DNA from: Zootoca vivipara
Lineage: Eukaryota
DNA length: 64,000 nucleotides
NCBI RefSeq assembly: GCF_963506605.1
Contig: NC_083276.1
Coordinates: forward strand, 109,306,001 to 109,370,000
Direction of reading: 5' to 3'
Program-made: the position numbers and the translations under genes
The notes under the pieces: generated by a model
Seen by the model: only the letters and a program-made list of their open reading frames with translations
Database searches by the model: none
Told to the model about the DNA's origin: nothing
In this document: positions 471 through 63,690 of the stretch, one piece after another
Layout of the letters: every line of letters begins with the position of its first letter
Numbering within the stretch: the first letter of the stretch is position 1

Positions 471-2621
471 GCTGCTGCATAGCCTCTAGAGTACGTCTTA
501 CCATAGTACACTCCATGTGCAACTGGGAAAATAGCAAGGGAAGGAGACAAATCGGAATAACATCCAATGCAGAGTGGAACCCCTTTGAGAGCTATGGGAG
601 AAGCAGCTTCTCGACAACAAGAAAGTGTCTGTTTTCCATTGTCAGTGTAGGAAGTGGGAGCCTTTGGAGAGAATAAAAGCAATCTGAAAATCCTATGAGA
701 TCCTATTCTGTTTTTTTCAAAAAGATGGGAGTTAGGTACCCAAGCAAACTTGCCTCAGTATGCGTGTGAGACGGTGTATATACGTGCATCACACTGAACT
801 CGGAAGTGACCTAGAAACATAATAAAGATGTCACTGAAACATCACTAAAAGGGTGAAACAAGGGTGGAGCAGGGGACAGTTTGGGGTGTTCGCAGGCTTT
901 TTCAATGGGTTTCAGTTATACGCAATTTCACTGACATGTTAGGAAATGTTGCATCTAAGTACTTAGAGTTTGTCAGCTGCTATAACAGCACAATATCCCA
1001 AACCATGATGATACATACATAATTTGTGGAATCAAGGTCGTTTTGTTCTTCTCTTCAGCATGTGTCTGGAAGTGTTACCTCACGTTCAGCGAGCTGAAAC
1101 CCTTATTATATTTGTCATTAATTGACATGTTATAATGATTGATGGTTTCTTTTACGTTGACTTTAAAATGTAATAACGTTCATGCACTCAAACTGACTTT
1201 GCTGTATTGCCGTGTTACGTTTTCAAATGATTCGTTATTGGATTGTTATTGTAATGATGTATTGATCTGCATTTTTGTTCGTTATGAACTGCATATTTAT
1301 ATCCATCCTATTTATATAGGAAAGTGGCATACAAATACTGAACATATTTGTATGGGAAAGCGGCATACAAATTTAAACAAATAATAACAATAACTACCCT
1401 GCCCCCATTTTGTGGCGCCATTCCAAATGGCATTCTGGAAACAATGGAGGTGACAGAAACTGCAAAGAGCTCTGGTGAGTCACCTGACCTGAAAACTATG
1501 CACCTTTCTGAAAATGTGAAATAGAGGAGAAGGTTTCATGCACCCTAATGTGGGCCTTCATTTTGTAAACTATCAGAAGTTCAGCCCAGCCCTAGTTCAA
1601 TCAATATCCCCTTTAGATTGGACTGAGAAGTGTGGGGTTGGGAAGAAGAAAGATGACAATTATTCATGTTGTTAAAGATTTCCCCATTAGTCATCTTGTT
1701 TTCAAGAGCTGGCCGAACTAGAACTGCGTCACTGAGGGGGCACCTCTGCAAATTGCTGAGGGCAGTAGCTAAGGGCACAGCTTGCTATGGTCAAATGTTT
1801 TGCTGAGTTTCTTGTTTTGTAGAAAACTGGAGCTTGGCTGAAGACTGCAAAACCATGCAGAAAGCGGGGTGGGATTAGCTCTGCCAAGATGTGCATTTAT
1901 TTGCCATTTTCCCTCTGCATACAATAGTCTTGCGAGCGCCTCCACTGAAAAAGTACTCTAGATAAAAACAGGCATAGAGCAGATTAGAAAGGACAATCAA
2001 AGGGTGATTATTATTAGTTTATAACTTTATTAAAAATGCATTTGATTTGTATTCTCTTGCAGAGACTCAGTGCTATTTAATTTCTTTCACTGTAGGCTTC
2101 CTACTGGCAAGCGGACAGATTAATGACCGGCTTCAGGACTCCCTGCAGTACTGAATTGCATGGTTAGACTAATTATACTAGGCTTCCTCTTGGCTCACAG
2201 AAGAGTGACTATTTACTATTATTTTTTTACTATTAAAAGGAATAAAATTACAAAATTGGGATGCTAGTTTAGCTTCCCAGAAATACTGGACATTCCTTTG
2301 TGTGTCTGGGAAAGGGCGACAGACCACACAGTTCACTCCCAACCACTTAACATTCTAAATTGTTGGGTTTTGGTTTGTTTTTTTTTAAGAAAAATACCTG
2401 CCAATAAAATTAATTAAAAGCAGATTAGAACATTGCAGTTTCAGAAACTTGCTCTGAAAAATTAGGGCAGCCACATTTAAATCCACCATCACATGTCATC
2501 CATCAAGGCCTCTTTATATGAAGAAGGATATGGATTATTATTATCATAATAGCTGCATTCTTAATTCTTTTGCCTCACATCTTCTTCTGTAATCTCACTG
2601 AACCCTTTGAGCAGAGACAGG

Positions 2622-2918
2622 CAGTGGCGTAGTAATGGGGGGGGGCGGGGTGCGCCGCTCCAGGCAGCAGGCTGGGCGGGGGAGACCACCTCCGACGGCT
2701 GCTGCCGCACGACACAACCGCCGCCATGGAGGAGAAGCCCCGACGCAACCAAGGCTGCCTCACTCCATGGCTTGCTCACGGGGTTTGCCGCGGCACCGCA
2801 GTGCATGCCTCCTGTGCGCACATGACGCGCGATGCATGCGGCAATGGACACCCCGCTCCCCGGCGGGGTACCTTCGCATTTGCCACCCTGGGCAGCCAGG
2901 TGGCTAGCTACGCCGCTG
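2622..2918. mobile_element. hAT-type MITE
   Basis: TIRs CAGTGGCGTAG / CTACGCCGCTG; perfect 8-bp TSD GAGACAGG (2614-2621, 2919-2926); CpG-rich interior. Confidence 0.9.
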
Positions 2919-3055
2919 GAGACAGGTGCATGTCCACACTTACGCAGAAGTCTTGAGGCAACATCTAATGATATCCACGTGCTTGTGGAACAGGAATCCA
3001 CTTCTTCATTAGGACTTCTGTTTCTCTTCTCTTGCTCCTGGCCCCCATAAGCTCG

Positions 3056-3926
3056 CAAGATCTCTCTGTAGGGCCCTCTAACCTTGTGGAATAGATGTTG
3101 GGGGCATGCAAGGAGCTGCAGTGGGGAGGAAGGAAAGGAAGGAGAAATCCACTCCACTTCCCAGTGGGGAGGAGCTGTGGTGGACCACGTGGGCACCCAC
3201 TCCTCTCCAGGAGCGGGGGACAAAGTCCCACATCACCTGGAGGTTCCCGGCCACGTCATTTCCAGCCAGCCAATCCGCTGGCTGGGGGGACGTGACTGGG
3301 CCCCATTTGAATGGAGGCGCGACCCAGAGAGCTTCCTCTTGACTCGCCTCTTCAATCTCCTGCCCGCCCTCCCTATTTTCAGGTTTCAACATTGACCTTG
3401 CTATAGACCTCAATTGGTTGCCATTAAGGGGCCTGGCAGGAATTTTTCCACTTGGCAAATTGGCATGGGCCATTTGGTTTTCACCTACCTCATAGCAATT
3501 GCCACAACTTTGTAAGGTTTGGCGGTTAGGCATTGGTTGATCTTATGATGGGGGAGGGGAGGTGTGGCCATCACCTGCCCCTCCAAGCTTAAGGGTATTC
3601 CGTTAAAGGAATCTGGGGGTGTGGGTCTTGTCCAAAGCCCGGGGTGGGGCTAGGGCCATCCCACAACCCCGTTGGGAAACCAGGGGCAGCTCGAGTTGGT
3701 TTGCATCGACAGGGCTCCCCTTACCGGTGGTTGACCCTTACAGGACTCCCTGCATGAGATATAGCCAGATATAGTCGGGTCATTTCCATTGCTTAAGCCA
3801 ATACTTCTCACATTCTGTAACCAATAAAGTTGTGGCCTAAATTCGCCCAATAACCATTAACCTAATATCCGTGTCCTTGTGTCTCATTCATCAACGAGGG
3901 GGTGGCTTTGGGGACTCGACACACAA
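3056..3926 (+). mobile_element. Retroelement terminal repeat (solo-LTR-like or DIRS/Ngaro-like), copy 1
   Basis: Shares ordered blocks with 27123-27860(-): TTGACCTTGCTAT, GGCAGGAATTTT..CCT(A/G)CC, CACAAC..GTAAGGTT, AATAAAGTTGTGGCCTAAATTC. No clean TG..CA or TSD; boundaries approximate. Confidence 0.65.
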
Positions 3927-4594
3927 TCCCTGTTTGACTGCAATGCTACTATTTGTATTGCACAATTCTCGTTTTGTCCTCTTACTGTCATCGCCAAGCT
4001 ACTGTGGTGTTTCTTAAGCTCCAAACCTCCCAGTTCAGTTGTTCTACTTGGTGATACTCATGAAATGCTATCCTCACCAACAGCCCTTAACTCGATTCTC
4101 CAAACAGTAGGCATTTAAAAACTGATCTTTGCAGGAGGAATCTGCAAAGAAGAGCAACACATATAGCTCACCTTTTTCAAAGAAACTTGTTCCTTGCCCT
4201 TGAATTTGTTGTTTCTCTGGGAGCAACACCACAAGCTAAATATATTTTCGCATTATTTGGTCTCTTTGTGATGGTTTTCCATCCTCCCTGCTCTTTTTGC
4301 CCCCAGTGCCACCAAAGCTTATGCGTGCTCAATGCTAAACTAAAATGAAATAGAATTTTAAAAAATCTACCTTCCGATAACCCAGTTTCTGAGATACAGA
4401 AAGCTGGATTTTTTCCACCTGTATAAATTATGCAAATGCAGTAGTTGGTGTTGCATAATTTATTCTGTAATTTTTTTGCAGCTAGTAGCTTTTAAACATT
4501 TCCGGAGAATTACATGAATGTTAAGAATTGAGCAGGGAAAAAGAGCACACATACTCTGCAGCTCCAATAGGATCAAACATGGATTTACAGGTTC

Positions 4595-7506: not shown

Positions 7507-8644
7507 AAATTGTGTTTCTTAATACCTCAAGGGGATTCTGTTAAAACTTTTCGGGCTGCGAAATGTAGCACTGCCTATGGTGTAGGGTTCAAGCTCGCTT
7601 CCCCCGTGGAGCCCATAACTGTATGAATCCCATTCTCCTCACCAAGCATGTCTTTCCCAGCTGGATGTGATAGAGTTCAATATTTATGCTCTTGTTGTAG
7701 GATTAAAATGCAGATGGACATAAAAGTTGTCATGCAGCCCGGGGGGGGGGAGAGAGAGAGAAAATGCCCCAAGTGGCTTTTCTCCACGTCATGGCAGTCA
7801 AATACAATTGAAATCTCTGCTTCGGAGAGTTTAGTTCCTCTGAAAACAGTGTCAGCAAAATGTGTGGAGTTCTTCCACAAGCAAGTATTTTAAACATTTT
7901 AATCAAGTTGAAATGATAATGACCTGAAGCACTGAACATTTTTTTTCTCCCCCCTTGCAGCTGCTGCAGTTGCACAAGAAGGTATATATCTCAGCCTAAA
8001 TGCGCTGAGTGAAAAAAAAATAAAGCAAGCCAGTGGGGGTTGCCTCAGGATTGCGGTTCCTGTAGTGGCATTGCCAACTAAGGCAGCTAAGGCAACTAAG
8101 GAAGGTTTGGTGCATTTGATATCCCCATAGGACTGACATTTCAAGACCTCTTGCACAGAAAGAACCCCATCACCCTTATAGAGATCACAGACATCATAAG
8201 CATTCTGCTGCCTTTGCAAAAAAATGAGATGCTCTGTGGGAAATCTCTACAATAATATTGCCTGCAGGGAGGTTTCTCGCTTTTCAGTCTTATGCGCTCT
8301 TTGAATGAACTTAGAAACATGCTAAAAGTGGTATCTTTTTGCTGAGGAGGAAGCAAAAAATGACAATCCTTAATATTGTTACATCCGGCCTGAATGGCGG
8401 AAATTGCTTCACATTTCAATTTAGTTGGACATAAACTTGTGCTCCTTGGGGATGACTCTGATTTAGTTAAGACAAGGCCGGCTCTACCATTGGGTAGAGT
8501 GAGGCTGCAACCTGTGGGGGCAGATGCTTGGAAGCAGGGGGGAAATGGATTGACCCAGTACCAAGTTTTTGACGGTACAAAACATGCAATGAGTTTGCAT
8601 GGTAACAAGCTCTTAATAAAGTTACGCTAAGGCCGCAACCCCAA

Positions 8645-9002
8645 GGGACGCAGGTGGCGCTGTGGGTTAAACCACAGAGCCTAGGGCTTGCTGATCAGAA
8701 GGTTGGCGGTTTGAATCCCTGTGATGGGGTGAGCTCCCGTTGCTCAGTCCCTGCTCCTCCCAACCTAGCAGTTTGAAAGCACATCAAAAGTGCAAGTAGA
8801 TAAATAGGTATCGCTCCAGTGGGAAGGTAAACGGCATTTCCGTGTGCTGCTCTGGTTTCCCAGAAGCGGCTTAGTCATGCTGGCTACATTACCCGGAGGC
8901 TGTATGCCGGCTCCCTCAGCCAGTAAAGCGAGATGAACACCCCAACCCCAGAGTTGTCCACAACTGGACCCTAATGGTCAGGGGTTCCTTTACCTTTACC
9001 TT
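8645..9002 (+). mobile_element. Sauria SINE (Squam1), full length
   Basis: GGGACGCAGGTGGCGCTGTGGGTTAAACC head, (ACCTTT)n tail, 16-bp TSD taaggcc(g/a)caacccca; inserted into an older small hairpin MITE running to about 9096. Confidence 0.93.
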
Positions 9003-15032: not shown

Positions 15033-15414
15033 GGGACGCGGTTGGCACTGTGGTCTAAACCACCCAGCCTCTTGGGCCTGCCGATTGTAAAGTCGGCGGT
15101 TTGAATCTGTGTGACGGGGTGAGCTCCCATTGCTCTGTTCTTGCTCCTGCCAACCTAGCAGTTTGAAAGCATACCAGCATGAGTAGATAAATAGGTACTG
15201 CTGTGGTGGGAAGGTAAACAGTGTTTCTGTGCGCTCTGGCACTCATCACGGTGTCCTGTGCACCAGAAGCGGTTTAGTCATGCTGGCCACATGACCCAGA
15301 AAGCTGTCTGCGAACAAACATCAGCTCCCTCAGCCTGAAAGCAGAGATGAGCAACGCTCCCCATAGTTTGAATCTGACTGGACTTCCAGGGGTCCTTTAC
15401 CTTTTTACCTTTTA
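15033..15414 (+). mobile_element. Sauria SINE
   Basis: GGGACGCGGTTGGCACTGTGGTCTAAACC head; ACCTTT tail. Confidence 0.9.
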
Positions 15415-22359: not shown

Positions 22360-23230
22360 GTTTTATCTAGATCCATCTCAGTTTAGCTTCAGGCCCCAAT
22401 ACAGCATCAAAGTAACTTCGGTGGTCTTCCTGATTAATTACCATTATCAGAGGAGTGACAGGGAGAGTTCAACCTTGCAGATTATGCACAACTTCTCAGT
22501 AGCTTTTGATAATCTGGGCCATGGTGTCCTCTTGGAGACATTCAGAGTTGGAGCGCTGAATTGCAGTGGTTCCATTCCTATCTCTGTAGTTGCTTTTAAA
22601 GAGTAGCAGCTAGGAATTTCTGCTTAATTCCATAGGAGTTATTGTGTTGGGTTCTGCAAGAACCAGTCTTATCCCCCATACTCTTTAACATCTATATGAA
22701 GCAATTGGGAGACGCCATCAGGAGATTTGTAGCAAGGTGTTATCAATATGTAAATGAAACTCAGCTCTGTTTCTCTGCTCCTTCTGAATTAGGTGTCTGG
22801 AGGCAGTAATGGGCTGGCCATGGGCCAATAAAGTGAAACTGAATCCAGACAAGCTGAGGTACTGTGACTAGGGTTGCCAGACTCAATAGAGGACAGGACT
22901 TCTGTGCCTTTAATTGCCCTGCTCTCTTTTGAGTCTGAAAACCTTAAAGAGAAACCAGCAGACCCTTTGCTTGGAAATTAAACAAAGGGTCTGCTGGTTT
23001 CTCTTTAAGGGTTCCAGACTCAAAAGAGAGCAGGGCAATTAAAGGCACAGAAGTCCTGTCCTCTATTGAGTCTGGCAACCCTAACTGTGAATTGTGGGCT
23101 TTCAGGTCTGGGAACTAGGTAGATGGCCCACCCTTCATAGGGCTTTATTGTCCTTGAAAGAGCAAGTCTGTAGCCTGGGGGTGTTCCTTGATCCACCTTC
23201 ATCATTTGAAGCCCCAGTGGCTAGGAGTGG
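22360..23230 (+). mobile_element. Decayed L2 reverse transcriptase fragment
   Basis: YLDPSQFSFRP...FSVAFDNLGHGVLL, then GVPQGS-, LFNIY- and LNPDK-like relics; interrupted by a MITE. Confidence 0.8.
22869..23083. mobile_element. Fold-back hAT MITE (101-bp arms)
   Basis: TAGGGTTGCCAGACTC...GAGTCTGGCAACCCTA; two mismatches between arms; TSD actgtgac/actgtgaa. Confidence 0.92.
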
Positions 23231-27122: not shown

Positions 27123-27860
27123 TGGCGTGCTCAGACCTTTAAACCGCCCCCTTAAATAAATTCACACAAGACTCAACTTTTTGGTTGGGTTTTTGGCAGA
27201 ATTTAGGCCACAACTTTATTGATTTCAGCAAGTGAGTGGTTGCATAGGCTCTGGTTCGACTAGCTCCCTGCACCGTGGCAGGTAGTGCTGACCCAGGGCT
27301 CTACCATAGGTCAGCCTAGGGTGAACACCTGGAATGGCGGAAAGCCAGGGACGTGCTATGTCCACCACCCAGATGTCCCTGTGGACTCAGGCATGGGCAC
27401 AACCCCTCACAGGGTTGACCAAACCATTGAGTACCTGGATTCCTTTAACGGAATACCTCTTCACATAGGGATGGCAAGAGCGTTCGCCCACCCTATCACC
27501 TGAATCAGAGCCTATCCACAACCTTACAAGTTGTGACAATTTGCTGCGTGGCAGGCGAAACCCAAATGGCACCAGCCAATCAGCCAAGTGGGGAAAATTC
27601 CTGCCGTGCCCCTGTACCAATGACAGATGACACATGACGGCATAGCAAGGTCAAGCTATAGGGAGAGGTGGGGGGGTGTTCCGATGCACTGACTAAGAGA
27701 GAAAGCTCAGGGTCACGTGTCTTGGCATACATAGGTCCCTTGATCCATTTGGCTAGTGTCCCATTGGTCAGATTAAACCCAGCATCAAGGGACCTACCAA
27801 TCGGGTGTTGTGGCTATCCAATCGTACCCACCCACAAGGGTTTGGTTGACAGATCTCACC
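27123..27860 (-). mobile_element. Retroelement terminal repeat (solo-LTR-like or DIRS/Ngaro-like), copy 2
   Basis: Reverse-complement homologue of 3056-3926; AATAAA at 27215-27220(-); boundaries approximate. Confidence 0.65.
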
Positions 27861-30800
27861 GCAACATGTGCCCTCTTTGAGGGAGGACATGATTTGCATA
27901 GACACGTGTAACTAAAAAAGGAAATCAGCCACCTCCAGCTTCCAGTTTGAAAACCTACACTGGAGACAGTGAAGCAACCAGGTATGAGCTGTGAAGGAAG
28001 GCCATGGTGTCAAGGATGCATTCCTTGGTCCTGAAGTGACACTGTTTTCTGCAAAGGACTTGTATGATGCTGAAATGATGCGATTCTACTTTAAAGACCT
28101 GCATCAGGTGAGGAATTTTATTGCCCAGCTCCAAAAAAGCCATTCTGGGATGCAGAGAGTGGAGCTGGGTGAAGAGTCGCATACCACATGTCAAAAAGTG
28201 ACCATGACTTATGGCCCCGGATCCACAGAGAGACGAGTTTCTAGAAGTTTAAAAAGGAGTGACATTTTAGGCTGAGATGCTGTCTGGATGTGGACCAAGT
28301 TCAGGATTTAGCTTGTGCTCTCTGGCAGGACAAAATGAGAAAATATCAAGATTCAGGATTGGCACACAGGATACGGATCAGAGCACTGGGTCGCTCAATG
28401 TGACTGACATGGGCTTCAGTAAGGCTCTGATAATCAGCTGTGCCTACCAAAATATTCTTCGGTCTAATAGGAAATGCTCATTGGGCTGAATCAACTCATT
28501 GGGCTGCCTGTCGAGATCAGACTTACTATCCACTGCGGTAAGCCTGACTAAGATTCTGTCCCTTCTCCCAACAAGCCCCAAGCACAATTCAGTGTTGATG
28601 CTGTGCTGGATGAGATGCCATGCTGCTAATTGCATGGGCTTTTAATTCACGCAAGCTGAGGAGGAACAAAACTATTGTCTTGATATTGTATTGCTACGTA
28701 TTATTGTTATTTGTGGTCATGGGATATGATGTTGCAAGCAGTAGTTGTGTACAACTATACTCTCCTCCTTCTCCTTTGAGCAAGATGCTCTTAGTGGGCT
28801 CCTCTCCAAGTGGCTCTCATTCTCCCTGCTGTTGTCATTTGCCTCTGCCTTCAAGCACAGCCACACCACCCTTCAGATGGAGAGAACAAGGTGTGCAAGG
28901 TTTACTACTCCTTCTCCTTCCTGATTGCTTAGTCAGAGAGGGAATGGGAACAGACCAGAGCGTCAAGGACCTGGAGCAGCAGGGTCAGTAGACTCCAGGG
29001 ATTGGCAATGGGTCCCCACTAGGATATAGACCTCAGCGAGGGCCCAAGAATACCAATCCTTGGAGCTGGCCCTGAAGACCTGTATTGGATCTCTTTTATA
29101 AAGAGCATTTCCTGATTGTGAAATGGTTATGATCATAACTGTCATGGTTAGAAACAAGAATATACAAGATGGCAAATGCACTAGTAGACATTGATCTGTT
29201 TTGGAAGGGCCACAGTGTCATGAATACCAAACCAAACATGCAAGAGATATTCCCCTGAAACACTCTCCTTCTTTCTCCTTCTTGTCATTAATTGTATAGC
29301 TATGCAAATAATTCATATAAATTTGATGTGGGGCTCCACCTGACAGCTCATCCAGATTAATAGGAGATGGGATTTGAAATGCCCAAAAATGTAAATTAGT
29401 GCTTCCACGGGAAATTATGAAGAAGCTTGAGCTAACTGTATCTTCAGTAAATCGGTACATGTGCAGGGCAAGACTATGCATGTTTACTCAGAAGTAAGTC
29501 CCACTGTGTTTAATGAGATTTACTCCCAGGTAATTGTGAATAGGAGCGTGGCTTTCTTGTCCCTTTCTTGAAAGGAGGAATGGAGCAAATGAAGATGGAC
29601 AAAAGCATAAGCTGCCCTCTTTGGTTGACCCAGAGGCCAAATTTGAAAACCGCCTATGCAAATGTGCAAATAAAGACTGAAATTGTTATTGTGAGCACTT
29701 AATTAAAGAAAGCAACAGAGAAGGCCCATAGACTTGCTTGCATGTAGCAGTTTTTAGAACTGGGTTGTGAATGTTGGTGAGAAAGTCCAAAACCATGATT
29801 TAGATTTAGGCTGATGTCCAAGACTTCCTTGCCTTATATTTATTTCCTTCCAGATGCTAAGCCCTTACAAAATTTGGGAATGAATGAAAATAAATGTCAT
29901 GCCCGAATGTCAAATCTTCATCATGTAATTGAGGAAAAGTCCCCAATGATGTTGCATAATGATTTTAACAGCTAGGAGCAGATCATAGGAGTTAGAGGAT
30001 TAGAGCAGCAATCAGTGTTGATGTTTCAACAACTCTTTGCTTAATGCAAACTCCAGATCCTTTGCATATATCGTTTTTAAAATGTGGACCAGGAATTTGC
30101 TGGCAGAGCTTCACATCCAATATGTGTGTTGGAGACTGTTTTAAAATCAGGTCAAGTGCTATGGTCAAATTTATTGCTCGCGTAAGGCTTAGAGTCATAG
30201 TGAATTTGTTCTCCTGATGGATAACCATGGCTGAATGTCAGATTTATAATTGCTTCATAATTAAACCACTGAACCATATATAATTTGTGTATAAATATCG
30301 TATAATGGTGGTTGGAAGGCACACAGTTTGCAAATGCTGTTTAGTATTAACTCTAGCCGTGTCCCGCCAACCTGGGTGGACAGCTACTCCTTCACCAACC
30401 TGGACGGCATGTTGCGCCTGCCCTCCCTACCTCAAGTGACACCCCAGCAGCAATCATTACAGACCATTTCCTTTCTCTCTCACAAACAGGGAACCACCCA
30501 CTAACAGTGCCTCTGTCTTATCCGGACTGACCATCAGGTTGTTGACTCTCATCCAGTCCATTACTGAGGCAGGACAACAGTCCAGCACATCCACTGCCTC
30601 ACCTGCAGACGTAAAGGAGAAATAGAGCTGTGAGCCATCAGCATATTGCTGACAATGTACTCCAAAACCCCAGATGACCCCACTCAGCTGGGTTCCTGGC
30701 CAGCTTTTGCTCCCCCATCTCCCTCATGGCCACAGGAGCCCAGGAGACAGAGAGCCAAATAGGAGCTTCAAGGGCATGTGGAAACGCCAGTATGGCTGAG

Positions 30801-37455: not shown

Positions 37456-38041
37456 ATATGATGTAACATAATATAGCATATCTTATGTCATTAGAACATT
37501 GGTTGAACTGAACGGATAGTGGATTTTAATGGCAGTATAAACTCCCAACAGTAGTGCTGTAAAGAAAACTTTTGCAGGAAACTATACAGCAAGTTACATT
37601 GTTAAGTTGGCAATTTTATTTATGGACTAGAGCAGAATTTTCTTTTAAGTGGCTCCTTTGATAGTCACGGTGTCCCATAGCGCTTTGCAATAATAAGCTT
37701 AGATACAATCAGCTCAGGGACTCTGTAGTGAACACAGCAGCTGTTCTGCATTCCATGTGCTGCCTGGTTCTTCAGAGACTATTTTACTGAAGGAAGGAAC
37801 AGGGGCTATTTTAAGTGCATTTTTATTCTCTGTGGTGTTCCGTGAGTTCTGTTAATTCCCACCTGGACAGTCACAAGTCACAGATAAGGGGGGGGGGAGT
37901 TCAAGTGAAAGACAAGTCCTTTAGGAGTGCCAGCTTCTAAAAATTCAAGACTAAAAAAACCTTCCATTTTCCAGTCCAAACTCCAAAAGCAATGGCAATT
38001 TAAAAGAATTTTTATTGTATTTTTCAATAATAACTTTATTA

Positions 38042-38407
38042 AAGGTAAAGGTAAAGGGGCCCCTGACCATCAGGTCCAGTCGTGTCCGACTCTGGGGTTG
38101 CGGCACTCATCTCGCTCTATAGGCCGAGGGAGCCGGCGTTTGTCCGCAGACAGCTTCCGGGTCATGTGGCCAGCATGACAAAGCTGCTTCTGGCGAACCA
38201 GAGCAGAGCACGGAAACGCCATTTACCTTCCCGCCGGAGCGGTCCCTATTTATCTACTTGCACTTTGATGTGCTTTCGAACTGCTAGGTGGGCAGGAGCT
38301 GGGACTGAGCAACAGGAGCTCACCCCGTTGCAGGGATTCGAACCGCCGACCTTCTGATTAGCAAGCCCTAGACTCTGTGGTTTAACCCACAGCGCCACCT
38401 GGGTCCC
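38042..38407 (-). mobile_element. Sauria SINE, full length, young
   Basis: (AAAGGT)n tail to ...CAGCGCCACCTGGGTCCC; 14-bp TSD taataactttatta. Confidence 0.95.
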
Positions 38408-38499
38408 TCTAATAACTTTATTAGTCATATGCAATAAACATACTGATTTTCTTTCCTTTGGCTCTGTGTTCTCATGACTGTATATTTGTGTAGAAAGTA

Positions 38500-57131: not shown

Positions 57132-57500
57132 AAAGGTAAAGGACCCCCATGACAGTTAAGTCCAGTCAAAGGTGACTATGGGGTTGGGGCACTCATTTCG
57201 CTTTCAGGCCGAGGGAGCCAGCGTTCGTCTACAGACAGCTTTCTGGGTCATGTGGCCAGCATGACTAAGCCGCTTCTGGTGCAGCGGAACACCGTGACAG
57301 AAACCAGAGTGCACGGAAACACCATTTACCTTCCCGCCGGAGCCGTACCTATTTATCTACTTGCACTGGTGTGCTTTCGAACTGCTAGGTTAGCAGGAGC
57401 TGGGACAGAGCAACGGGACCTCACCCCGTCACGGGGATTCGAACCGCCGACCTTCCGATCAGCAAGCCCAAGAGGCACAGTGGTTTAGACCACAGTGCCA
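57132..57500 (-). mobile_element. Sauria SINE nested in the Squam2-like SINE
   Basis: 16-bp TSD ccagcaccta(c/t)aggta. Confidence 0.92.
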
Positions 57501-57560
57501 CCAGCACCTATAGGTAGGGCTGTGAGAGACTCCAGTCTGAAACCCTGGAAAACCAGTCAA

Positions 57561-57783
57561 CTGAGGCACCTTCTTCTCAAGAAGATTGAGGGGCCCTGCT
57601 GTGATGACCGGACATCACATGCACAATGCTGTGTGATGTCCTGACGTTGCGCATACAACATTGCAAGGAGCTGTGGGGCAGAGCCGAATGTCCTCTGAAC
57701 ATTGATGGGGGGGGCTGGCCAGGAAAAAACATACATTGGGGGCCCCAAAAAAGTGCCTCAGCCCCTAGGAGCTGGCACCTATG
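57561..57783. mobile_element. hAT-type MITE nested in the Squam2-like SINE
   Basis: 3' TIR AGCTGGCACCTATG; flanks ccagtcaa/ccagtcag. Confidence 0.55.
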
Positions 57784-57892
57784 CCAGTCAGTGTATACAA
57801 CACTGAGGTAAATGGGCCATTCAGTAGAAGGCAGCTTCCTATGAGATATACCTTCCTACACACAGACAAGTCCAACTTGCACAAGGCTTTAA

Positions 57893-58224
57893 AAGGTAAA
57901 GGTAATGGGACCCCTGACCATTAGGTCCAGTCATTACCGACTCTGGGGTTGCGGCGCTCATCTCACATTATTGGCCGAGGGAGCCGGCGTACAGCTTCCA
58001 GGTCATGTGGCGAACCAGAGCAGCGCACGGAAACGCCGTTTACCTTCCCGCTGTAGCGGTACCTATTTATCTACTTGCACTTTGAGGTGCTTTCGAGCTG
58101 CTAGGTTGGCAGGAGCTGGGACCGAGCAATGGGAGCTCACCCCGTCGCAGGGATTCGAACTACCGAACTTCTGATCGGCAAGGCCTAGGCTCTGTGGTTT
58201 AACCCACAGCGCCACCTGCGTCCC
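57893..58224 (-). mobile_element. Sauria SINE
   Basis: 12-bp TSD acaaggctttaa; full head ...CAGCGCCACCTGCGTCCC. Confidence 0.93.
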
Positions 58225-59647: not shown

Positions 59648-59955
59648 AAAGGTAAAGGTAAAGGGGCCCCTGACCATCAGGTCCAGTCGTGTCCGACTCT
59701 GGGGTTGCGGCGCTCATCTCGCTCTATAGGCCGAGGGAGCCAGCATTTGTCCGCAGACAGCTTCCGGGTCATGTGGCCAGCATGACAAAGCCGCTTCTGG
59801 CGAACCAGAGCAGCACACGAAAACGCCGTTTACCTTCCTGCCGGAGCGGTCCCTATTTATCTACTTGCACTTTGATGTGCTTTCGAACTGCTAGGTGGGC
59901 AGGAGCTGGGACCGAGCAACAGGAGCTCACCTCGTTGCAGGGATTCGAATCGCCA
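59648..59955 (-). mobile_element. Sauria SINE, 5' truncated
   Basis: TSD acctaaa(c/t)ggta; very similar to 38042-38407. Confidence 0.93.
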
Positions 59956-60910
59956 ACCTAAATGGTATTTCATACAAATTGTTGTGTTTGTTTCGTTTTG
60001 TATTCTGGACACAGTTTGGTAGAGGAGTTTTCTCCTTAAAAGTCGGTTTAAAATTTATGAAAGGATAGTGAATATAAACCAGGGGTGTTATCCAACAAAA
60101 TAGTTCTGCTAACAGGAGGCGCTTTTAGCTGCACAATGGAACTTCCCTGCCCTTTCCTCTCATTTTGTGACCCCCACATGACCCGGAAATCTGTTCCAGA
60201 GGCTCCTCCAACCCCCCCCCCGCACCCCCAGAGCAAATTTATGGAACGTGCAGGGAGAGGAGAGGGTGGGAACGTTTCATTGCACAGCCAAAACTCCTTG
60301 CATATTGTTTTGTTGGCTACTACCCCATACTTTCATGCTGTGAAAGTATATACAATAAATCTTGAAAATTAAAATTAAGAAGCAAATGCCTTTTGAGGTG
60401 TATGTAAAAGGAGAAACCTAGCTTTGCTACCATTCTTTGAGCCCAATCAGTTGATTCGTTACATAGCAACAAGGTAGAAAGCTGCCTGACCCTGACTCCG
60501 GCAGTCAGGCCGTTGGTCTATTGAGGTCACTGTTGGTCGCTTCATCACAGAAGCTTGCCAGTTCTTTATTTCTTGACAGCATTTTAAAATAGCAAGATCA
60601 CGGAGAGACTCAAAGGCCATATACTAGTTCATCTCCCACTGAAACATCAGGACCATCTGCTCACCATACCCCCAGAGAACAACTTACGTGATGCAAACCA
60701 CATTATGCCAGTAAGAAGAGGACAGGTGTTCTGCAGAATTCTACTTACAGGGCAAAAAAAAACAGCTCTGGGCTTCATTTTACTGGAGCTTTCTCCCCAT
60801 GTAAAAGCCACTTCTAGAAATAAAGTGGAATATAGCAGCAGTTCATTCAGTTTCCCCAACATTTGGGCTGCATTCGGACAATACTTTATTCCATCTTCGC
60901 AATGTTTCCT

Positions 60911-62872: not shown

Positions 62873-63690
62873 TGTCAGGAGTATGGGCAGGAGTCAGACT
62901 CTGGGGCCTGTAGTGCCTTGCAGGACTGGGGCCTGCCTCAGCTTGTGCTGGGGAAGCAAGGCGTGGCCACACAGGTGAAGACCTCAGCTTGTGCTGGAGA
63001 GGCAAGGAGTAGTCACCCAGGTGAGGCCACTTGAGATCTCATTGCACCTGGTGGCAGGAGCTGGGAGGAATAAAAGCCCAGCATTTCCCTTCAGCTCTTT
63101 GCCACAGCAACGCTATCCCTGCCTGGTTGCATCTGGCCTCCTGCTCCTTGGACCCTCGCCTTGTTGACGCCTTGCTCCTCGACCCTTGGACCTTCGCCTT
63201 GCTTCTTGTTCCTTGGACCCTCGCTTTGTCGACGCCTTGCTCCTCGACCCTTGGACCTTCGCCTTGCTCCTCGACCCTTGGACCTTCGCCTTGCTCCTCG
63301 ACCCTTGGACCTTCGCCTTGCTTCTTGTTCCATGGACCTTCGCCTTGCTTCTTGTTCCTTGACCCTTCGCCTTGCTCCTTGCTCCTGGGACCCTTGCTTT
63401 GCCTTCGCCTTGCTCCTCGACCCTTGGACCTTTGCCTTGCTTCTTGTTCCTTGGACCTTTGCCTTGCTTCTTGTTCCTTGGACCTTTGCCTTGCTTCTTG
63501 TTCCTTGAGCCTTTGCCTTGCTTCTTGTTCCTTGAGCCTTCGCCTTGCTTCTTGCCCCGTGGACCTTCGTCTCTGCCTTGCTCCTTGACCCTGCAACTGC
63601 CTGCTGCTGGACCCTCAGCCCTGCTCCTGTTCCTGCTTCTTCACCACCATCTTGTCTCTGGTCCTGACACCCGCCGACCGGACCGTGACA
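62873..63690 (+). mobile_element. Solo LTR (Gypsy-like) with an internal minisatellite
   Basis: TGTCA..TGACA termini; perfect 5-bp TSD GTGGT (62868-62872, 63691-63695). Confidence 0.9.
63140..63590 (+). repeat. 27-bp minisatellite, about 16-17 units
   Basis: Units ccttgctcctcgacccttggaccttcg and ccttgcttcttgttccttggacctttg; 9-aa periodicity in the ORF track. Confidence 0.92.

Follow-up and report, generated by a model that had tools for sequence, protein, structure and literature searches.

Lizard Ngaro-type retrotransposons carry an ENE-like fold once per element, in the spacer before the last repeat

What kind of element carries the ENE-like RNA motif noticed at this locus, and is the motif a kept structure or an accident of a decaying repeat? 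The locus lies in a 64,000-nt stretch of Zootoca vivipara DNA (GCF_963506605.1, NC_083276.1, positions 109,306,001-109,370,000 of the forward strand), here called the window, to which all coordinates refer. The original prediction placed a lower stem, two opposed U tracts and an upper stem at 3435-3489 (plus strand) in the terminal repeat of a retroelement, 334 nt upstream of an AATAAA. All pieces of this layout can be read in the letters: GGCAGG (3435-3440), AA, T5 (3443-3447) and CC (3448-3449) in the 5′ half, and GG (3476-3477), T4 (3478-3481), CA and CCTACC (3484-3489) in the 3′ half, which gives U5 and U4 tracts flanked by AA and CA steps and an upper stem opening with CC/GG. The AATAAA is present at 3823-3828. 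Both strands of the proposed lower stem (3435-3440/3484-3489) are there as well, but in the window copy they are interrupted by a C·A mismatch at 3437/3487; position 3437 is T in 27 of 28 aligned family copies and C in the window copy only. The apical hairpin had been drawn from the inner UGGC, and here the MFE fold and the relatives indicate that the first UGGC (3453-3456) is probably used instead, paired with GCCA at 3469-3472.

We found that the host is not an LTR element. A search of the genome with the window unit gave 40 scored matches of ~780 bp with the same ends, which set the unit at 3145-3926 (plus strand, ~780 bp), along with 5,233 first-look candidates, a figure that is not a copy number. 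In 30 loci inspected by eye the units begin with an AAATCC-like start and close with a CA(C/G)CAA-like finish; neither TG..CA ends nor a target duplication was seen in these 30 loci, and we discarded the reading as an LTR retroelement or ERV solo LTR. Searching the genome with Phage_integrase returned 62 matches, and many of the 30 loci fetched from these run from a tyrosine recombinase (YR) to a further ORF to a window-like repeat, with the B part before the motif. Full-length relatives have the order A1-gag-RT-YR-hydrolase-B1-A2-spacer-B2; their A1 and A2 copies (210-268 bp) are 98.6-100% identical, their B1 and B2 copies (377-707 bp) 99-100% identical, and the same AAUAAA is present in both B copies. 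Above the Pfam cut-off we obtained RVT_1 (E 1.9e-11) and Phage_integrase (E 1.9e-7), and the last ORF matched Lipase_GDSL_2 of the GDSL/SGNH family in 5/5 cases, all below the curated cut-off (best E 3.8e-7). The gag had zero Pfam matches, and the hydrolase ORF had nothing with E < 0.08 in the PDB. We conclude that the parent of the window unit is a Ngaro-like YR retrotransposon, with split direct repeats, RT and YR, and a hydrolase ORF after the YR, and that the window unit is the solo A-spacer-B form of this layout. It represents an old subfamily: it is 70-71% identical to two intact families over ~470-500 nt, and the B of its subfamily sits after a hydrolase-ORF tail in two loci (L306 and L308). 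No full-length member of the subfamily itself was found in the genome, and tblastn found no Ngaro ORF remnants in the window.

The same architecture has been described elsewhere. In their available portions, the sources report the layout A1-ORFs-B1-A2-B2 with a hydrolase ORF after the YR for Xenopus DIRS-53_XT (PMC9210276), solo AB repeats for Cafeteria Ngaro (PMC8547959), and for SIRE of VIPER a solo A-B unit that likewise has an exclusive internal region (PMC6681497). Split direct repeats, RT, YR, hydrolase ORF and solo A-B units are thus points of likeness to these systems, whereas the lizard spacer is structured and 160-300 nt long, and those portions describe no structured spacer or ENE. 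The literature that we searched contained no account of an ENE from a Ngaro/DIRS element or a squamate transposon, although the Tycowski 2016 survey or its supplement may list one.

Within the window unit, the A repeat spans 3145-3358; A stops right before a C-rich tract in 8/8 full-length elements, and the A of one further copy (L310) matches to unit position 215. With a CCAAT at 3270-3274 and a TATA-like stretch at 3305-3311, A is the likely promoter. The unique A2-B2 spacer, which starts with the C-rich tract, occupies 3359-3519, and in full-length elements it is missing after A1 and before B1. The B repeat, closed by a helix that we call P3, covers 3520-3926, its start set by copies that begin at unit position 376. 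The motif is therefore part of the spacer, a once-per-element segment, rather than of a terminal repeat as had been thought. A second solo unit, of another subfamily, lies at 27125-27895 on the minus strand; its fold (27550-27605) has U4/U3 tracts and a compensatory C-G pair in the lower stem, with C and G at that pair in 30/30 copies of its subfamily.

Several other features of these elements deserve mention. The C-rich tract (window 3359-3373; the first 10-20 nt of the spacer) begins exactly at the end of A1/A2 identity in 8/8 elements (L277, L279-L285) and is a candidate priming or strand-transfer signal. A pyrimidine tract followed by CAG/G, resembling a 3′ splice site, precedes helix P1 at 3372-3384 and in many families, though not all. 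Three intact elements (L095, L286, L192) carry extra tandem A-spacer-B units at the 3′ end, and in six loci of the window subfamily (L304-L307, L309, L310) A meets B directly or via a hydrolase tail, with the spacer missing. Elements at L099, L172, L193 and L287 are inserted within a 146-bp tandem satellite. Elsewhere in the window we noted SINE-like repeat copies on both strands (8641-9000, 15038-15342, 38041-38408, 57200-58224 and 59648-60014), an inverted repeat at 22869-23083 (104 bp, arms 97% complementary) and a tandem array of a 27-bp unit at 63141-63567.

To what extent do the relatives keep the fold? We examined 80 hydrolase-ORF loci (L157-L196, L237-L276), hand-picked for diversity from two protein searches with 150 matches listed each; 12 of the 80 were also among the 16 sequences that built our family model, R1. 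Two B repeats are present in 40 of the 80 loci, and the fold lies between them in 40/40. It is absent from all of the remaining 40, of which 37 end at B1 and three are without a B signal. The fold ends ~25-35 nt before B2, and none was found after A1 or before B1. Lizard Ngaro-type elements carry the fold once, in the spacer before the last repeat, and on the sense strand only. As a separate observation, the 37 loci that end at B1 stop precisely there and are spacer-less, as against 40 complete 3′ ends; these B1-ending forms, together with the solo units, may reflect circle resolution at the internal B-A junction and not only host recombination.

The original prediction held that a real structure should covary in its stems and keep its U tracts better than its flanks, and at the family level both were borne out. 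Our covariation set comprised 16 representatives, 14 found by protein and two solo subfamilies, with hydrolases 34-83% identical. Across a 7-bp lower stem plus the CC/GG pairs, 98.6% of cells are paired and there are 12 double changes at four pairs, a count of sequences rather than events, the hydrolase tree suggesting a handful of independent changes; the lower-stem variants lie on separate branches of that tree. None of 500 shuffles reached the observed level, partners slid out of register were 34-66% paired, and RNAalifold recovered the same lower stem unprompted. Both U tracts are unbroken, with 3-6 U each, in 41/41 matches and 16/16 representatives, even between families with hardly alignable A and B repeats: identity between 11 families is 61% over the final 90 nt of the spacer, 35% over A and 43% over B. 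In 41/41, an invariant A and one further base stand between the lower stem and the 5′ U tract. Tandem G-C pairs (one of them G·U) cap the lower stem in 16/16, C-G pairs open the upper stem, and a 2x2 step (A-N / Y-G) lies between the lower stem and the U tracts. The upper stem is free in sequence and 15-33 nt long in the 16 representatives, all of which fold, and each of the 16 has one U loop.

We also wrote a generic ENE descriptor that contains no family sequence. Because it was written after the motif had been seen, only its misses are an independent control: it matched 12 of 13 spacers and one of 3,900 shuffled spacers, and it had no match in the elements' remaining 94,007 nt of sense sequence or in 96,450 nt of antisense sequence. 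Covariation among the relatives, the 40/40 complete 3′ ends and these controls establish that the fold is more than chance at the family level.

A chance look-alike in a dead repeat is accordingly refuted for the family and, as an overall account, scarcely tenable; it stands only for the inactivity of the window copy. On that narrower point it has evidence of its own. The isolated window 55-mer folds no better than its shuffles (z -0.37), and among solo copies any excess conservation of the U tracts was inconsistent between the two subfamilies compared (4.0% versus 8.0% in subfamily 1 and 5.2% versus 3.4% in subfamily 2). Model R1 recognizes the window copy with 86.5 bits and the second copy with 93.9, all else in the window scoring 15 or less, but the window copy fails the strict descriptor because of the C·A mismatch in its lower stem. 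This private stem break, the 9% of columns at which the copy differs from the commonest base of the family, and a predicted lower-stem probability of about 0 in context together indicate that it is probably an inactive remnant. Taken by itself, the copy is an unremarkable decayed remnant.

The fold sits within a larger predicted structure. Beneath the lower stem, the basal helix P1 pairs 3398-3405 with 3491-3498 (plus strand; 7/8 pairs in the window copy) and shows compensatory variants across families. Helix P2 is long-range: its 5′ strand (3501-3511) can pair with 3826-3836, at the poly(A) signal. In 13/13 elements the GUUGU right after the B2 hexamer pairs best with the ACAAC right after the fold (predicted p 0.39-1.0, and 1.0 in the window copy); as its sequence is invariant, P2 is without covariation support. 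P3, which closes B, is predicted in 13/13 elements with clear compensatory changes and is decayed in the window copy (~3526-3536 with 3786-3796). The plus-strand segment 3823-3849 combines the AATAAA, the 3′ strand of P2 and, at 3848-3849, the CA that is the likely cleavage site in this copy. In whole spacer+B folds the ENE lower stem dominates the ensemble in only 8/13 elements, a point that tells against a clamp, and in 2/12 other copies of the window's old subfamily. The predicted openness of AAUAAA is lower in B2 than in B1 in 10/13 elements (means 0.48 versus 0.63). Thus, folding does not explain read-through of B1, and a model in which folding hides the first poly(A) signal was set aside as unsupported.

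We then asked what RNA is made. Three raw runs of the same species label (X17, X18 and X19, which come from one study and of which we used about 6% each) and one contig set were compared with an intact sister element, L283, which lies on the minus strand; strand was assigned by the usual stranded convention. In X17, sense depth was 16 over the spacer, 28-44 over B, where many reads derive from other families, and 0.5-2.6 over A; bins lying entirely inside RT, YR or hydrolase reached 1.9 at most. Reads across the spacer-to-B joint numbered 19 sense and one antisense in X17 (11 starts), four in X18 (one start) and zero in X19. Nine X17 molecules end 17 nt past AAUAAA, 2-3 nt before a CA whose place is conserved across families. 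X18 also has antisense depth on L283. No poly(A) loose ends were listed in the X17-X19 reads over L283, and full-length RNA was not seen in these runs, with almost no depth over RT, YR and hydrolase. Reads aligned to a further locus, L092, were mostly partial reads of other families and were not used for levels; among indexed runs recorded as RNA, none contained the L092 stretch. The joint reads, together with the ends at the B signal, indicate that the sister family makes a short sense RNA that includes the fold.

One possibility is that the fold serves cleavage rather than the tail. U-rich upstream elements are known in cellular and pararetroviral RNAs, and by setting an open U-rich loop beside the B2 hexamer P2 could make the fold such an element, raising cleavage at B2 over B1 without any binding of the tail. 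Of the two identical signals, the second alone is preceded by the fold, P2 is predicted in 13/13, and the RNA ends at the B site accompany spacer-B reads and not hydrolase-B1 depth. A selector of this type, however, has no need of a pair of facing U tracts with G-C pairs above and below them, and the final 1-2 A of the hexamer are taken up by P2, with B2 predicted to be the less open signal in 10/13. We regard site selection as an unlikely full account, although it is compatible with a clamp, as the two are not mutually exclusive.

The claim that the motif has the stem, opposed U tracts and stem of an ENE is borne out by the MALAT1-type ENEs of the same genome. We found 24 mascRNA matches there, 16 of them on one contig, and in 8/8 fetched loci (L291-L298) a MALAT1-type ENE and an A-rich tract lie upstream of mascRNA. 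All eight loci share with the Ngaro fold the grammar AGG-U..CC / GG-U..CA-CCU with its 2-nt 3′ step, and in the Ngaro fold, as in the MALAT1/MEN-beta type, the third strand is predicted to enter from the lower-stem side. In contrast, the MALAT1-type U tracts are longer and C/G-interrupted while the Ngaro tracts are unbroken, and the Ngaro fold has a shorter loop and is without the genomic A-rich tract and tRNA-like element. The 5′ step of A plus one base in the Ngaro fold is lacking in the genome's MALAT1-type ENEs, which counts against the clamp. Model R1 does not match these ENEs, so no homology is shown. An Rfam scan of 2500-4500 gave chance matches only and no mascRNA; since Rfam does not match the genome's own MALAT1-type ENEs either, this negative result is uninformative for the window. 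With no mascRNA in 2500-4500 and unbroken U tracts, we rejected placement in the MALAT1/MEN-beta blunt-ended class, and with one U loop per element in 16/16 representatives, placement with the double-domain ENEs of the TWIFB1 type.

The nearer parallels are viral and transposon ENEs. In the portions available, one source gives five triples and three A-minor contacts for the KSHV PAN ENE and lists stickleback retroviruses along with plant, fungal and slime-mould transposons as carriers of ENEs (PMC7583470), and another reports that the Evade ENE depends on its U tracts and on the G-C pairs beside them and promotes transposition (PMC12501189). As far as these sources and the available part of PMC13541005 describe them, KSHV PAN and transposon ENEs such as that of Arabidopsis Evade/Copia93 resemble the Ngaro fold in several ways: a hairpin is interrupted by a U-rich internal loop with G-C pairs at its borders, which on the lower side of the Ngaro loop lie beyond the 2x2 step, and it is located on the sense strand ahead of a poly(A) signal, in the 3′-terminal part of mobile-element RNAs with few introns. 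G-C pairs next to the loop, reported to be essential in Evade, would favour a clamp; against it, only three U are present on one or both sides in one clade (L106, L237 and L242), compared with the five triples of KSHV PAN. Relative to the accounts in these portions, the Ngaro case also differs in its host, a reptile tyrosine-recombinase element, in the A-N / Y-G step below the loop, in U tracts as short as three, and in a predicted long-range helix tying the poly(A) signal to the foot of the fold. The Ngaro fold thus has the layout, 3′ position and sense strand of an ENE and, on present evidence, would work like one.

We also looked for the fold outside these elements. A similar layout is known from CR1 3′ ends of other vertebrates, and a pattern with a GGAAGG/CCTTCC lower stem and long U tracts had zero matches in this genome. 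A GGNAGG-stem pattern had 37 matches in the genome versus zero for a reversed control, and eight of the 30 fetched adjoin a hydrolase ORF. Viral contigs gave two pattern matches, neither backed by the model, and no YR relative, and metagenomes gave two distant YR loci, both without the fold.

We consider it fairly probable that the fold serves RNAs ending at B2 as an ENE-like poly(A) clamp, with tail binding as its putative activity. The U-rich loop would form U·A-U triples with the poly(A) tail of the same RNA and slow the deadenylation of that tail. P3 is predicted to fold B out and P2 to pin the bases just past the B2 AAUAAA at the foot of the fold; the tail, added ~10 nt after the P2-held bases, would then enter the clamp from the lower-stem side, as in MALAT1. 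Only RNAs ending at B2 would carry the clamp, that is, the read-through RNA and short RNAs begun in A2 or in solo units, and of these the read-through RNA alone would hold the B-A junction needed to rebuild the element ends. Restriction of the clamp to B2-ending RNAs would in this way favour the copying template over RNAs that stop at B1. The repeat-annealing model of priming has the B-A junction as a requirement.

Priming also figures in a different proposal, in which the fold and P1-P3 would be recognized by the gag or reverse transcriptase that the element itself encodes, marking full-length RNA for packaging or setting the 3′ end for priming. Such a site would be confined to RNAs extending to B2. 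The sequence of P2 and its flank does not vary even between families at 34% protein identity, a hint of sequence-specific recognition, and priming in split-repeat elements does rest on repeat annealing in the model given in the available part of PMC6681497. Yet the upper stem varies freely in sequence and in length (15-33 nt), and if synthesis primed itself at P2 or the U tract, the spacer's 3′ portion would not be copied. By inference we set aside self-priming at P2, given that 16/16 representatives keep a G·U-type partner in the spacer, one that differs from the exact complement of the putative primer. A gag or reverse transcriptase site is in our judgment improbable as the main role.

A role at the DNA level is less probable still. 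The 5′ half contains GGA(A/C)TTT(T)CC, which we take to be NF-kB/NFAT-like, and the upper loop often contains ATTGG, which we take to be a reverse CCAAT box; many representatives show the former word and ATTGG or CCAAT, and the fold lies ~100 nt downstream of the A promoter, as might suit an enhancer. Such an enhancer would account neither for the second U tract nor for the compensatory changes seen in P1, P3 and the lower stem, and the reverse-CCAAT word is absent from L091, L179 and L188.

Returning to the ENE-like clamp, we offer, as a possibility that we hold tentatively, a fuller model: a folded 3′ module, consisting of an ENE-like clamp with the A-N / Y-G step, a basal helix and two long-range helices, would form at the second of the two identical poly(A) signals but not at the first, and would pre-place the new tail in the clamp, such that the template is chosen by RNA stability, and hundreds to thousands of solo units would have spread promoter-clamp-poly(A) cassettes, some of them still making short stabilized RNAs. 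If the fold is such a clamp, poly(A)-clamping triple helices would extend to a further order of mobile elements and to amniote transposons, and these families would provide natural variation on a minimal ENE, with 3 to 6 triples and a new 2x2 step. It would also make testable an open point of Ngaro biology, namely which of the RNAs from two identical signals is copied, and why.
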